A DNA stretch of 64,000 nucleotides from assembly GCA_029776155.1 (NCBI GenBank), contig JAKOTU010000040.1:46484-110483 (forward strand), in the 5' to 3' direction. Of the stretch, positions 53,724 through 57,093 are shown piece after piece. The notes beneath the pieces were generated by a model. That model searched no databases, was not told the DNA's origin, and was given only the letters and a program-made list of their open reading frames with translations. Numbering within the stretch: the stretch's first letter is position 1; each line of letters begins with the position of its first letter. A program made the translations under genes and the position numbers. Source of the stretch: Bacillota bacterium. Lineage in GTDB: Bacteria; Bacillota; Limnochordia; Darwinibacteriales; Darwinibacteriaceae.

Positions 53724-54653
53724 ATGCGGAGGAAAGGCATTGTAATTGCGGCTGTGCTGATAGCGGCTTTAGCTTCACAGGCGCTGGGCGCTGAGCTTGT
53801 GAACATGGAGTTCAAACAGGCGCCTTTAGGAGAAGTGCTGCAGATTTTGGGCCAGCTGGGGGGGTATAACGTCCTGGTGGATTCGTCGGTGCGGGGTGAA
53901 GTGAGCTTCGTGCTGAAAGACCTGTCGGTGCAAGAGGCTTTGGACCTAGTTACCAAAACCACGGGGTACGGGTACCAATTGGTGGGCAACACCTTGGTGT
54001 TTGCCAGTGAGGAGAGGCTGAGAAGCGAGTTCGGCAGTGAAGGGGTACGTTTTGTCTCCATTGCCCATGTTGCCGCGGATGATGCCCGTGCTTTGGTCAG
54101 TATGGTTGTACCCAATGTGCGCAGCTTTGTAGATGCCAAGCACAACTTAGTGGTGCTGTATGGCCCGGAAAAGGACCTGGAGGTGGCAGAGCGGGTGCTG
54201 AGGCAGTACGACCAGCAAGCCGGAGGAAAGGCCGTGCCTGCGCAGGCTCTTCCTCAGGAAACGCCCCTCAAGGCAGGGGAAGAGCAGCTATCCTTCTACG
54301 CGGTGCCCATTGAGTACGCGGATGGGCAGGGGATTTTGACCATGCTGCGCCACTTGCTGCCCCAGCGTGAGTTCGCCTTTCATCCTGAAAGCGGTCTACT
54401 CAGCGCTAGAACCACCCCTGAAGAATGGGAAACCCTGAAAGTGGTCATTGCCCGGCACGATCTGCCGGAGTTGGCCCTGAAAGGAATCCTGCGCAGCGCG
54501 GATCAGGCTGTGGCGCTGGTGGAACATGAAGGGGTCTCCCATTTCCTGAAACTAGGCGATGAGCTTGTGGGCTGGACGCTGACCGAGGTGGGGGACGGCA
54601 CAGCACAGTTCACCCAGGGTGAACGGAGCTTTGTAGTGAGATTGGGGAGGTAG
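53724..54653 (+). CDS. exported secretin N-terminal (N0/N) domain protein with C-terminal PilP-like domain, no secretin core
   Basis: Signal peptide; MEFKQAPL-EVL..NVLVD--V-G-V-F-L (N0/STN); N-domain repeats; LKGIL..ALVE..LKLGDEL-GW-L-EV. Confidence 0.7.
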   Translation: MRRKGIVIAAVLIAALASQALGAELVNMEFKQAPLGEVLQILGQLGGYNVLVDSSVRGEVSFVLKDLSVQEALDLVTKTTGYGYQLVGNTLVFASEERLRSEFGSEGVRFVSIAHVAADDARALVSMVVPNVRSFVDAKHNLVVLYGPEKDLEVAERVLRQYDQQAGGKAVPAQALPQETPLKAGEEQLSFYAVPIEYADGQGILTMLRHLLPQREFAFHPESGLLSARTTPEEWETLKVVIARHDLPELALKGILRSADQAVALVEHEGVSHFLKLGDELVGWTLTEVGDGTAQFTQGERSFVVRLGR

Positions 54654-54657
54654 CCGC

Positions 54658-56265
54658 ATGACAGCGCAGCAGAGGTTCCGATTGTCCGTGATACTGTTTT
54701 TGCTGCTGACGGGCTGCCTGGTCCTCAGCACCCCCAGTCTTGCCCAGACCTTGGATTTGGCCTTTCAAGAGGTGGATTACAGCCAAATCTTCATGGCCCT
54801 TGGGGCAAGCCAGGGCTTGAATGTGGTGGTGGATCCGGCCGTAACAGGGCAGGGTACCTTTCAGTTAAAAGGAGTCACCTTCGAAGAAGCCCTGGAGTTG
54901 GTTGCTCAGGTGAGCGGCTGCACTTACCGCATCAGCGGGAACACCCTTCTCGTTTCTTCCGGCCAATCCACTGCCGAGCTGAATAGGACGGATGTGCGGT
55001 ATGTGCCGGTGGAGAACTTGACCCGGGAAGAAATCTTTGAGGCTTTGAACCTGGTCATGCCCCCTTCCAGCATTTACGTGCCCCCCCAGGGAGGCCTGGT
55101 GGTGCTGCAGGGAACCAGCACTGTGCTGGACCAGGCGGAGGAGCTGCTCTTCACGCTTGATGCGAGCAAGACCGGTACAGGCGAGCAGAAGGCCAAATCG
55201 CTTTTGGAGATCTTCGCGGATCTCAGCGCTGCCCTCCAACTAGACTTGGTGGCTGATCCGGCCCTGGAGGACATTAAGCTCCACGTTCAGCTGCGCAGCC
55301 AGGATCCCTACGCGCTGATCAAGCAGATTCAGCTGCTGGTTCCCCTCAAGGTGGAGATCACCGAAACTACATTGGTGGTGGGCAGTTTAGCTGCTTCTTC
55401 TTTGGAGCGTGTGAAGGTTTACCGCCTGAATTACGCGGAACCGGAAGCGGCTAGGCAGGCCTTGACAGCGTTAATCAACGAGGAGCAGATCCGCATCGAT
55501 CAGGACCGCAAAAGCATTATCGTGCGCGGCACGGAACTGGAATTGGCCGAGATCGACTTGTTCCTGAGCGAGTTTGACCAGCCGCTACCCCAAGTTGTGC
55601 TGGAGGTCTGGGTTCAGGAGATGACCAGCAATGCCCTGAAGGATTTGGGGATCGAATGGCGCGGCGTGCCCAGTGTTTCCGGCGGCGATGCTCCCGTCTT
55701 TCTGGAGCTGGAATGGACTCCCTGGGATTTGATCTTGGCCCTGAGGGTCTTGGAAGAGAAGGGCGAAGCCAAGCTCTTGGCCAATCCCAAAATCTCTACC
55801 CTCAGCGGGCAGTCGGCGAGGATCTTTGTTGGGGACAGGGTACCGGTGGTGTTGAAAAACGAAGACGGAAGCTCCTTTGTGAGCTTCTTGGAGTCGGGCA
55901 TCAACCTCCGAGTCACCCCCCGCATCTCCGATGACGAGTACGTCACCATCCTGGTGCAGCCCGAGGTGAGCACGTTTGTGTGGCGCATGGAAACGGACTA
56001 TCCCCAGATCAGAACAAGGGAAGCGGAGACCACGGTGCGGGTCAAGGATGGCCAGCCCTTTGTACTGGGGGGCCTGCTCCAGGACGAGGAGCATGAGCTG
56101 GTTTCGGGTATTCCCTTCCTGTCGCAGCTTCCCGTCTTGGGCAAGCTCTTCCAGTGGCGGGATACCAAGCAGTCCCAGACAGAAATGACCATTATCGTGA
56201 TTCCCCGCATCATAGATGAGGGACAAGATGTGGTGGATCAGAGTTTTTTTACCGCAGCCCAGTAA
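54658..56265 (+). CDS. pilQ: secretin (PilQ/GspD family)
   Basis: N0 and N domains; QVVLEV, LANPKISTLSGQ-A-I-VG, GINL-VTPRI, V-VKDG--FVLGGL, IPFLSQLPVLGKLF, IPRI. Confidence 0.92.
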   Translation: MTAQQRFRLSVILFLLLTGCLVLSTPSLAQTLDLAFQEVDYSQIFMALGASQGLNVVVDPAVTGQGTFQLKGVTFEEALELVAQVSGCTYRISGNTLLVSSGQSTAELNRTDVRYVPVENLTREEIFEALNLVMPPSSIYVPPQGGLVVLQGTSTVLDQAEELLFTLDASKTGTGEQKAKSLLEIFADLSAALQLDLVADPALEDIKLHVQLRSQDPYALIKQIQLLVPLKVEITETTLVVGSLAASSLERVKVYRLNYAEPEAARQALTALINEEQIRIDQDRKSIIVRGTELELAEIDLFLSEFDQPLPQVVLEVWVQEMTSNALKDLGIEWRGVPSVSGGDAPVFLELEWTPWDLILALRVLEEKGEAKLLANPKISTLSGQSARIFVGDRVPVVLKNEDGSSFVSFLESGINLRVTPRISDDEYVTILVQPEVSTFVWRMETDYPQIRTREAETTVRVKDGQPFVLGGLLQDEEHELVSGIPFLSQLPVLGKLFQWRDTKQSQTEMTIIVIPRIIDEGQDVVDQSFFTAAQ

Positions 56266-56314
56266 CCCGAACGGAAAGACGAGGGGAACCAACCTTTGAG
56301 CGCGGTTACTGGGT
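56244..56314 (+). other. candidate -1 frameshift/slippage signal (U UUU UUU plus downstream stem)
   Basis: T7 at 56244-56250 read as AGT TTT TTT; 6-7 nt spacer; perfect stem CCCAGTAACC(56258-67)/GGTTACTGGG(56304-13). Confidence 0.55.
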
Positions 56315-56621
56315 AGAGTTCACAACACAACGGGTAGCCGGGGGGGTGAGTACTGAAGCGCAGAGCTTTGAAGTGGGGTTGGGGGCGGTTTACACTGCAC
56401 AGGAGTTGGGATTGACAGGCTACATGCAGTATTCCCTCACATTTCTTCGAGGACGTTTGCAGCTGGATCTATTGGCCGATCGCAGCTGGAATCCGCAGTT
56501 TACCCTGGGGGTACCATTGACCATCAAGGACTTGAGTCTGGAACCGCATCTGGTGTGGTCGGCGGCTAACAACCAGTGGTTCCTGCCCAACATGGGGCTG
56601 CGGGTGCAGTATCAGTTTTGA
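56250..56621 (+). CDS. outer-membrane beta-barrel-like domain in the -1 frame of the secretin (ORF track starts it at GTG 56346)
   Basis: Frame open from 56220 with no start codon before 56346; about 8 alternating amphipathic strands; ends GLRVQYQF; no signal peptide. Confidence 0.6.
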   Translation, partial: YRSPVTRTERRGEPTFERGYWVEFTTQRVAGGVSTEAQSFEVGLGAVYTAQELGLTGYMQYSLTFLRGRLQLDLLADRSWNPQFTLGVPLTIKDLSLEPHLVWSAANNQWFLPNMGLRVQYQF

Positions 56622-56664
56622 CAGACAGTAGGTCATAAATGTCTCAGGACAAGGAGGATTTGAG

Positions 56665-57093
56665 ATGCTGAGGAAAATCAGAAAAATGCTCAAACAAGAA
56701 GAGGGTTTTACCCTTATGGAGTTGATGATCGCGGTTGCGATCATCGGCATCCTCGGCGGTATTGCCATTCCCGTATACAACGGAGTGCAAGAACGGGCCA
56801 AGTATGCGGTGGGTGAAGCTAATGCGCAGATGTTGAACAGAAGCATTGTGCATTGGATCGCTTTAGGAATGCCCGACGAGAATGGCAAACCAAAACCTCA
56901 AGATGAACTCATAGAAGAGAACAAATACGACCATAAGACGCATGGTGCGGGTCTGTTCGCTTGGCTAGGCTTAGACGAAGTCGAGTACGTAAACTGGGAC
57001 CCAGAAAAACGGCAGTATTATCCCGATACATCGGTAGAAGGAGGAAAGTTGCCAAAACCGGAACCGGACGAAACAGGGGGAGACGATGAGTAA
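56665..57093 (+). CDS. pilA: type IV pilin (likely major pilin)
   Basis: Prepilin site EEG|FTLMELMIAVAIIGIL...IP; strong AAGGAGG RBS. Confidence 0.88.
   Translation: MLRKIRKMLKQEEGFTLMELMIAVAIIGILGGIAIPVYNGVQERAKYAVGEANAQMLNRSIVHWIALGMPDENGKPKPQDELIEENKYDHKTHGAGLFAWLGLDEVEYVNWDPEKRQYYPDTSVEGGKLPKPEPDETGGDDE

Follow-up and report, generated by a model that had tools for sequence, protein, structure and literature searches.

We analyzed a 64,000-nucleotide (nt) stretch of DNA (contig JAKOTU010000040.1, positions 46,484 to 110,483 of the forward strand; hereafter the window) from an uncultured biogas-reactor bacterium of a diderm Bacillota lineage, and focused on the 3' end of a gene encoding a secretin, a probable pilus channel. 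The secretin open reading frame (ORF), which ends with CAG AGT TTT TTT ACC GCA GCC CAG TAA, is overlapped in the -1 frame by a start-less ORF for a predicted β-barrel. Comparison with related genomes indicated that the overlap contains a real, conserved recoding site, and this site probably directs a conserved programmed -1 ribosomal frameshift, from which a 535-amino-acid (aa) secretin and a 654-aa secretin–barrel fusion would be made. An initial annotation of the window had proposed such a frameshift. Re-reading of the window sequence confirmed all of its coordinates, including a slippery heptamer in the correct register, a short spacer, and a stem containing the 0-frame stop, and its interpretation was supported by each of the comparative tests it had named that was run. 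The elements of the locus are as follows.

54658..56265 (+), secretin gene in the 0 frame (535 aa), with a signal peptide, STN, Secretin_N, and the secretin C-domain
56244..56250 (+), T_TTT_TTT slippery heptamer, in register with the 0 frame; on a -1 shift, AGT TTT TTT re-pairs as TTT TTT
56251..56256 (+), spacer ACCGCA of 6 nt, from the heptamer to the first paired base
56257..56314 (+), predicted stimulatory stem-loop, with the 5' arm at 56257-56267, the 3' arm at 56304-56314, and a 36-nt loop
56263..56265 (+), 0-frame stop TAA, located in the 5' arm, four codons past the heptamer
56250..56303 (+), linker YRSPVTRTERRGEPTFER in the -1 frame, 18 hydrophilic residues without a start codon (grand average of hydropathy, GRAVY, -1.88)
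56304..56621 (+), eight-stranded β-barrel domain in the -1 frame, 105 aa ending in QYQF, with a TGA stop at 56619-56621
56340..56350 (+), conserved run of seven G followed by TGAG, GGGGGGGTGAG, which is Shine-Dalgarno-like and encodes G-G-V-S of barrel strand 2

Conservation of the frameshift site

The -1 frame stays open between 56220 and 56621, and no canonical start codon (ATG, GTG, or TTG) occurs in it before a GTG at 56346. In the predicted stem, CCCAGTAACC (56258-56267) is perfectly paired with GGTTACTGGG (56304-56313), and the pair G56257-U56314 adds an eleventh base pair (bp). The 3' arm encodes G-Y-W, and the loop holds a small inner hairpin. The run of seven T (T7) alone was unremarkable, with nine occurrences in the window against 8.05 expected, and the 80 nt 3' of the heptamer had a minimum free energy (MFE) of -25.9 kcal/mol (z -3.0; one of 200 shuffles as good). 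Because both the T7 and the fold were only mildly unusual, the significance of the site rests on comparison with relatives rather than on the single sequence.

A six-frame search with the -1 frame peptide identified homologues in 13 of 41 related genomes, and a profile of those homologues yielded matches in 16 of the 95 genomes of the class. The matches were distributed over families as follows (window's genome left out).

Family f1, 12 of 26 genomes with a match
Family f5, 2 of 3 genomes with a match
Family f3, 1 of 9 genomes with a match
Thirteen other families, 0 of 56 genomes with a match

The initial annotation had pointed to orthologous loci as a check on the frame offset and the T run, and both were conserved throughout. 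In all 16 genomes, the homologue was located in the -1 frame behind an orthologous secretin (42-64% identical to that of the window), whose stop was preceded at a distance of 19 nt by the start of TTTTTTT, always in the register T_TTT_TTT. The position of the stop was likewise invariant, with TAA, TGA, or TAG as its codon. The CCCAGT arm followed the heptamer at a distance of 7 nt in 16/16 loci and in 26/26 metagenome contigs, and the loop between the arms of the 16 loci measured 27-102 nt, always a multiple of three. The -1 frame opened 3 nt before the heptamer in one relative (L006) and at the heptamer in one metagenome contig (L200), because of which the frame change must fall within the 19 nt between the heptamer and the 0-frame stop.

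The metagenome contigs were obtained with a scan pattern that allowed T6, T7, or T8 and a loop of 25-45 nt. They comprised 21 distinct junctions, some possibly from the same species as the 16 genomes, and every contig showed T7, the 7-nt spacer, and the -1 offset. Positions 55900-56700 were, moreover, covered in one piece by contigs of four runs, each from a different study, with T7, two substitutions relative to the window, and no insertion or deletion. Two of these runs were labelled RNA and two DNA; such contigs hide minor variants and cannot prove transcription. The length of the T run, which the initial annotation had singled out for checking, was T7 and never T8 in the 16 species-level genomes, the 26 metagenome contigs, and the four independent assemblies of this organism. 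A pattern scan of genome contigs was unspecific, as among the matches listed 4 of 80 loci held a secretin and the rest were chance; these four, possibly from genomes already counted, were left out of the counts.

Separately, three of the four sequencing runs (X2, X9, and X4) each contained a second, deeper contig from another organism that matched the window only at 56229-56264 (36 nt), with unlike flanks. This segment corresponds to the heptamer, the spacer, and the 5' arm, and the second contigs show a sharp peak of nucleotide conservation at the signal.

Next, we examined synonymous sites. Given the residues X-F-F, the probability of T7 calculated from the codon usage of each gene ranged from 0.016 to 0.34. 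When the 16 secretins were aligned over their C-terminal 460 residues, 68 columns other than Met and Trp were invariant, and among these a single codon was used only at the two TTT codons of the heptamer; seven other conserved Phe columns contained a mixture of TTT and TTC. In the 75 nt 5' of the heptamer, the commonest third-position base was shared by 6-10 of the 16 sequences at most sites, with two sites reaching 12 and 15, and from the heptamer onward the corresponding numbers were 16, 16, 16, 13, 8, 16, 16, and 13. The codons of the 3' arm were GGT TAC TGG in 14 of the 16 loci. We interpret selection at the heptamer as acting on the nucleotides, beyond the encoded residues.

The predicted stem was also shared by the relatives. 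In 12 aligned sequences, 97.7% of the cells were paired, versus 17-50% when the 3' partner was slid by 1-3 columns, and RNAalifold analysis of 13 sequences returned the 11-bp helix as the sole consensus structure. The helix formed part of the single-sequence MFE structure in 12/16 loci, and the changes within it were all one-sided (A-U to G-U and C-G to U-G). In one locus (L004), the conserved Tyr was replaced with Cys through an A-to-G change that retained a U-G pair, and in another (L005), the long helix was broken, but a local GCCCGG/CCGGGC hairpin started at the same distance. Both details are consistent with a structural role of the stem. No Rfam family matched at the site.

Two further elements were considered around the helix. 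An outer helix formed by the spacer/heptamer region (UUACCCC) with the G run was seen in some single-sequence MFE structures, and was rejected as it was absent from the RNAalifold consensus. The G run itself, GCAGGGGGGGTGAG or a close variant with GGG GGG for two Gly, occurred at a fixed distance past the 3' arm in 11/16 loci (besides the window, L002-L005, L007-L009, L011, L012, and L021). It was not part of the consensus structure, and it contains the GTG taken as a start by gene callers. The run may act in pausing or as an additional RNA contact, or it may be coincidental.

The -1 frame extension and its natural variants

The linker and the barrel together form a 123-aa extension, so that the predicted trans-frame product comprises 531 + 123 = 654 aa. 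To obtain structural information, the -1 frame peptide was modelled with AlphaFold2 using a 13-row alignment. The model (predicted local distance difference test, pLDDT, 90.2; predicted template modelling score, pTM, 0.79) contained nine DSSP strand segments in one antiparallel sheet. Foldseek placed it closest to the de novo eight-stranded transmembrane barrels 6x1k and 6x9z (template modelling score 0.6), followed by the transmembrane domain of OmpA, NspA, OmpX, and OprF-N. Hydrophobic and polar residues alternated along the strands, e.g. F40-V42-L44-A46-Y48, L95-L97-P99-L101-W103, and M115-L117-V119-Y121-F123. The peptide is predicted to be a closed antiparallel eight-stranded transmembrane barrel, and the barrel fold that the initial annotation had read from the strand pattern is thereby predicted with a pLDDT of 90. 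The same annotation had described a terminal Y-x-F as a β-signal recognized by the β-barrel assembly machinery (BAM); the QYQF end of the window agreed with this, and a universal aromatic end did not hold, as the C-terminal residue was F in 10 of the 14 relatives with a complete barrel end. Across relatives, the barrels were 30-52% identical and free of stops, suggesting coding constraint.

Family searches gave little to name the domain. No Pfam or NCBIfam family matched the -1 frame peptide at E values up to 0.1, and Pfam at E values up to 10 matched neither this peptide nor the in-frame extension of genome G029 described below. At the same limit, the extensions of genomes G039 and G028 gave two unrelated chance-level matches. 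A protein Atlas supplied leads only, namely Phage_OMP and DUF7840.

We then asked how the barrel could be exported. An own N-terminal signal peptide was found neither in the 16 loci nor in 15 called proteins that a profile search retrieved from 1.84 billion representative proteins. These 15 matches were 79-148 aa long, none was fused to a secretin, and they began raggedly at profile positions 6-47, with no hydrophobic N-terminus when read. One of them (P0002) is the window's own 91-aa gene call, which starts at the GTG in 56340-56350. A search of the protein collection for longer homologues revealed no fused form, a near-length search returned only this 91-aa call, and a related-loci search with a single protein query gave no match. 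The initial annotation had considered independent export of the barrel implausible for want of a start codon and a signal peptide, and no relative provides the barrel with either. Because the barrel lacks a signal peptide of its own, the fusion would be needed.

Natural controls were sought with the C-terminal 221 residues of the secretin, which gave full-length matches of at least 51% identity in 18 of the 41 related genomes; a nineteenth match (G034) was cut by a contig end. Four states were distinguished.

T7 followed by the barrel in the -1 frame, 15 of those 18 genomes; a sixteenth (G069) came from the 95-genome search
Barrel fused in frame, no T7, G029
No barrel and no T7, G027
T6 with a decayed barrel, G035

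In G027, the site reads TCG TTT ATT and the next gene follows directly (locus L042). In G035 (locus L045), T6 (CCT TTT TTC) is followed by a relic of GGTTACTGG, three stops in the -1 frame, and then a pilin gene, which looks like a recent loss of the barrel. One natural in-frame fusion exists: G029 encodes a 665-aa ORF, also called as a protein (P0017), with a 135-aa in-frame extension, and its junction, TCT ATG TTT ACT AGT GAC CCA, contains neither T7 nor a stop. This extension aligned with the barrel family (hhalign probability 72%, E 3.5e-5, over the last 42 columns) and was modelled with a pLDDT of 86.5; its Foldseek matches were 6x9z (E 8e-6), then 6x1k, OmpX, and NspA, with OprF-N also matched. 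As a query, it found only itself in the 95 genomes and in the protein collection. On the evidence of G029, one lineage makes a secretin–barrel fusion as an ordinary gene product, and T7 has been retained only where the frame must change. A barrel on every subunit is tolerated, as G029 shows, and the barrel can be lost, as in G027.

A further in-frame extension was observed outside this group. In genome G039 (locus L048, oriented 472-2700), a distant secretin within the same class (32% identical) carries a 173-aa, β-rich in-frame extension that ends in GIRLGWRY. It matched the barrel profile with a non-significant E value of 0.094 and had no convincing Pfam match, and it was not counted. It may be a second, independent secretin–barrel fusion.

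Proposed mechanism and alternative explanations

The locus combines the features by which -1 frameshift sites are recognized, i.e. an in-register heptamer, a start-less overlapping -1 ORF, a predicted 3' structure, and synonymous-site conservation. Under the frameshift model, ribosomes on the secretin mRNA would reach U_UUU_UUU with the 11-bp stem, whose first pair lies 6 nt 3' of the heptamer, at the mRNA entrance. A fraction of them would slip back by one base with both tRNA-Phe re-paired, and would then read the 18-residue linker and the 105-residue barrel in the -1 frame; the remaining ribosomes would terminate at the stop four codons past the heptamer and release the 535-aa secretin. The 654-aa fusion would be exported by the signal peptide of the secretin, and BAM would insert the barrel, which could tether the multimer to the outer membrane or direct it there. 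Possible roles of the barrel are those of an anchor, a handle for BAM, or a pilotin-like element. We infer that the slip is ribosomal rather than transcriptional and that only a fraction of the subunits carries the barrel. In E. coli, heptamers of the form H_HH.U_UU.Y, which include U_UUU_UUU, rank with the most efficient of the -1 motifs in the presence of a 3' stimulator, according to the available text of PMC4066793.

Several points weigh against this model. The trans-frame product is predicted from sequence, and the genome counts overstate independence, since the relatives are kin. Regarding the stem, its position 3' of the heptamer and its short spacer were conserved as the initial annotation would have it, and the covariation that it had also suggested looking for amounted to a compensatory double change in 0 of the 11 stem pairs. 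Because no pair shows a double-sided change, the helix is unproven by covariation; the 3' arm doubles as a conserved coding motif, and nearly all of the changes are transitions that keep G-U pairing anyway. The long helix lies outside the MFE structure in 4/16 loci, and the loop extends to 102 nt in L013 and 60 nt in L044. With synthetic constructs in E. coli, slippage at U_UUU_UUU fell well short of that at A_AAA_AAG (available text of PMC5009743). The homology of the G029 extension rests on a modest hhalign score together with the alignment and the shared predicted fold, and 4 of the 14 complete barrels end in a non-aromatic residue. Finally, the comparative evidence on T7 fits transcriptional slippage equally well.

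Transcriptional slippage is the main rival, albeit an unlikely one. RNA polymerase would add one U on T7, and the resulting U8 mRNAs would encode the same fusion. A homopolymer run is the element that such slippage requires, and one extra U gives exactly the -1 frame; in work by Penno from 2005 and 2006, transcriptional slippage is said to control genes for Shigella's type III secretion apparatus. Efficient transcriptional slippage sites, however, usually consist of nine or more bases or are helped by an upstream hairpin, whereas here the run is exactly seven, in codon register, and never longer in 16/16 genomes and 26/26 contigs. No consensus hairpin was found 5' of the run; the conserved element is a stem on the 3' side, at a spacing of the frameshift type. 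The avoidance of UUUUUUU in genes has been ascribed in part to transcriptional slippage in the available text of Sharma et al. (PMC4066793). The T7 in contigs of the two RNA-labelled libraries argues weakly against transcriptional slippage, as assembly drops minor variants and the contigs may originate from DNA.

It is considerably less probable that the -1 ORF is a separate small gene whose product stays unfused, translated through termination-reinitiation at the secretin stop (a GTGA overlap) or by initiation at a non-canonical or internal codon. A GTG overlaps the stop in the 7/16 loci where this stop is TGA, a Shine-Dalgarno-like G run precedes the GTG at 56346, and gene callers produce the 79-148 aa proteins described above from this frame. 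In the other 9/16 loci, however, GTA occupies the place of the overlapping GTG, and in 6/16 loci there is no ATG, GTG, or TTG between the upstream -1 stop and the conserved GYW. Strand 1 and two conserved motifs, P-V-T and G-Y-W-V-E, lie 5' of the called starts, including the GTG at 56346 in the window. Coding conservation upstream of 56346, which the initial annotation had proposed to look for, is evident in these motifs and in linker lengths that are multiples of three; the linkers of the relatives are all hydrophilic (GRAVY -0.38 to -2.21). Its placement of the first two strands 5' of this GTG stood for strand 1, and only for about half of strand 2 in the AlphaFold2 model. Signal peptides are missing from all versions, so that a barrel made separately would have no way to the outer membrane, and a separate gene would account neither for the T7 that is invariant at synonymous sites nor for the in-frame fusion of G029.

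An artefact or a non-programmed origin, i.e. a constitutive fusion that was misassembled, a T run subject to phase variation (T7 off, T8 on), or a decaying pseudogene, is the least credible explanation: homopolymer runs are hot spots of mutation and error and G035 does show decay (T6 and stops), but no T8 or T6 allele was found in the 16 species genomes, the 26 contigs, or the four independent assemblies, and the barrel is under coding constraint, with linker indels in multiples of three.

Known systems and the secretin neighbourhood

The secretin site would work like the dnaX frameshift, the IS3 orfAB fusion, and the phage G/GT frameshift. In E. coli dnaX (tau/gamma), a -1 frameshift is aided by an upstream Shine-Dalgarno element, and shifting yields the shorter of the two products. 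The dnaX heptamer is A_AAA_AAG (available text of PMC5009743). Like dnaX, the secretin gene is a chromosomal, non-mobile bacterial gene in which an X_XXY_YYZ heptamer and a 3' stem-loop would give two products sharing their N-terminal part; unlike dnaX, it has U_UUU_UUU, and the shifted product would gain a whole folded domain. No conserved upstream Shine-Dalgarno-like element of the dnaX kind was seen at the aligned loci. The G/GT frameshift of phage tail-assembly chaperones sets a ratio within an assembly machine. As in G/GT and in orfA-orfB of the insertion sequences (IS) IS3 and IS1, a -1 slip would join an ORF to an overlapping start-less ORF and yield a minor, C-terminally extended protein; those cases belong to phages and mobile elements, whereas the present one concerns a cellular envelope machine and adds an integral membrane barrel. 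The heptamers used by IS elements include U_UU.U_UU.C (available text of PMC4066793). The gag-pol site of human immunodeficiency virus 1 consists of U_UUU_UUA together with a stem-loop (available text of PMC4373837). It resembles the secretin site in its nearly identical U-rich heptamer and in the simple stem-loop a few nt 3', and differs in being eukaryotic/viral; in the secretin gene, the stem encloses the 0-frame stop and carries a long loop, of 27-102 nt among the relatives.

Secretins are known to be targeted by a lipoprotein pilotin that binds the S domain or, in liposecretins, by an N-terminal lipid anchor. As in pilotin-dependent secretins, the multimer here would need help at the outer membrane, and the extra element stands at or near the secretin C-terminus; unlike in pilotin secretins and liposecretins, the candidate element is a covalent transmembrane β-barrel made by recoding. 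The arrangement also recalls autotransporters, in which a C-terminal barrel follows an exported passenger that supplies the signal peptide, with the difference that the 'passenger' here is itself an outer-membrane channel. The barrel shares the eight-stranded fold, short loops, and aromatic C-terminus with OmpA-N, OmpX, NspA, and OprF-N; unlike these, it matches no Pfam outer-membrane family, and its 105 aa correspond to the size of de novo minimal barrels. Tentatively, recoding could set the stoichiometry of the anchor, such that a minority of the 12-15 subunits would carry a BAM-inserted barrel that pins or nucleates the channel in place of a pilotin.

To our knowledge, few conserved programmed -1 frameshifts are found in non-mobile bacterial genes. 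If the present interpretation is correct, the secretin gene would add one more, located in a cell-envelope machine and accompanied among relatives by shifted, in-frame, lost, and decayed states. It would also offer a new answer to the targeting or anchoring of secretins where no pilotin is known, and the small site is easily testable with reporters. Standard annotation misses the barrel domain, of which only the truncated calls of 79-148 aa appear among the 1.84 billion representative proteins. Literature searches, which did not extend to supplementary tables, turned up neither an account of recoding in secretin genes nor one of a barrel-appended secretin, and such a device for making two products from one gene has not been described for secretins in the literature searched. 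The word 'secretin' occurs nowhere in the available texts of PMC5009743 (first 300,000 characters), PMC3711429, and bioRxiv 2025.10.02.679949.

The window protein encoded at 54658..56265 contains the secretin C-domain (Secretin, PF00263, E 7e-45) together with the Secretin_N (PF03958, E 3e-11) and STN (PF07660, E 3e-7) periplasmic domains, the composition by which secretins are defined. Its best NCBIfam matches were PilQ (TIGR02515) and GspD (TIGR02517), with 176.8 and 172.4 bits against curated cut-offs of 284.35 and 351.35 bits, respectively; by these scores, the protein is assigned to a divergent secretin subfamily. Its signal peptide, read from the sequence, is of the signal peptidase I (SPase-I) type, as are those of the relatives. 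A lipobox-like L-T-G-C in 54658-54750 had suggested a liposecretin, and this reading was dropped: the Cys is not conserved in 17 orthologues, all of which have the SPase-I type.

The genome of the window is 97% complete and encodes an Omp85/BamA protein (G000:C88:14486-15376, E 3e-57). LpxC was not found in it; the outer membrane may be without classical lipid A, and we draw no conclusion from the missing LpxC. A pilin with an N_methyl motif, identified by family search, is encoded 3' of the secretin, and ORFs resembling PilB, PilT, PilC, PilM, PilN, and a prepilin peptidase were recognized in the neighbourhood from their translations alone. Directly 5' of the secretin gene, positions 53724-54653 (+) encode an exported protein of 309 aa; it has STN, Secretin_N, and GspD-N0 domains and no secretin C-domain, and it looks like a stand-alone copy of the periplasmic part of a secretin.

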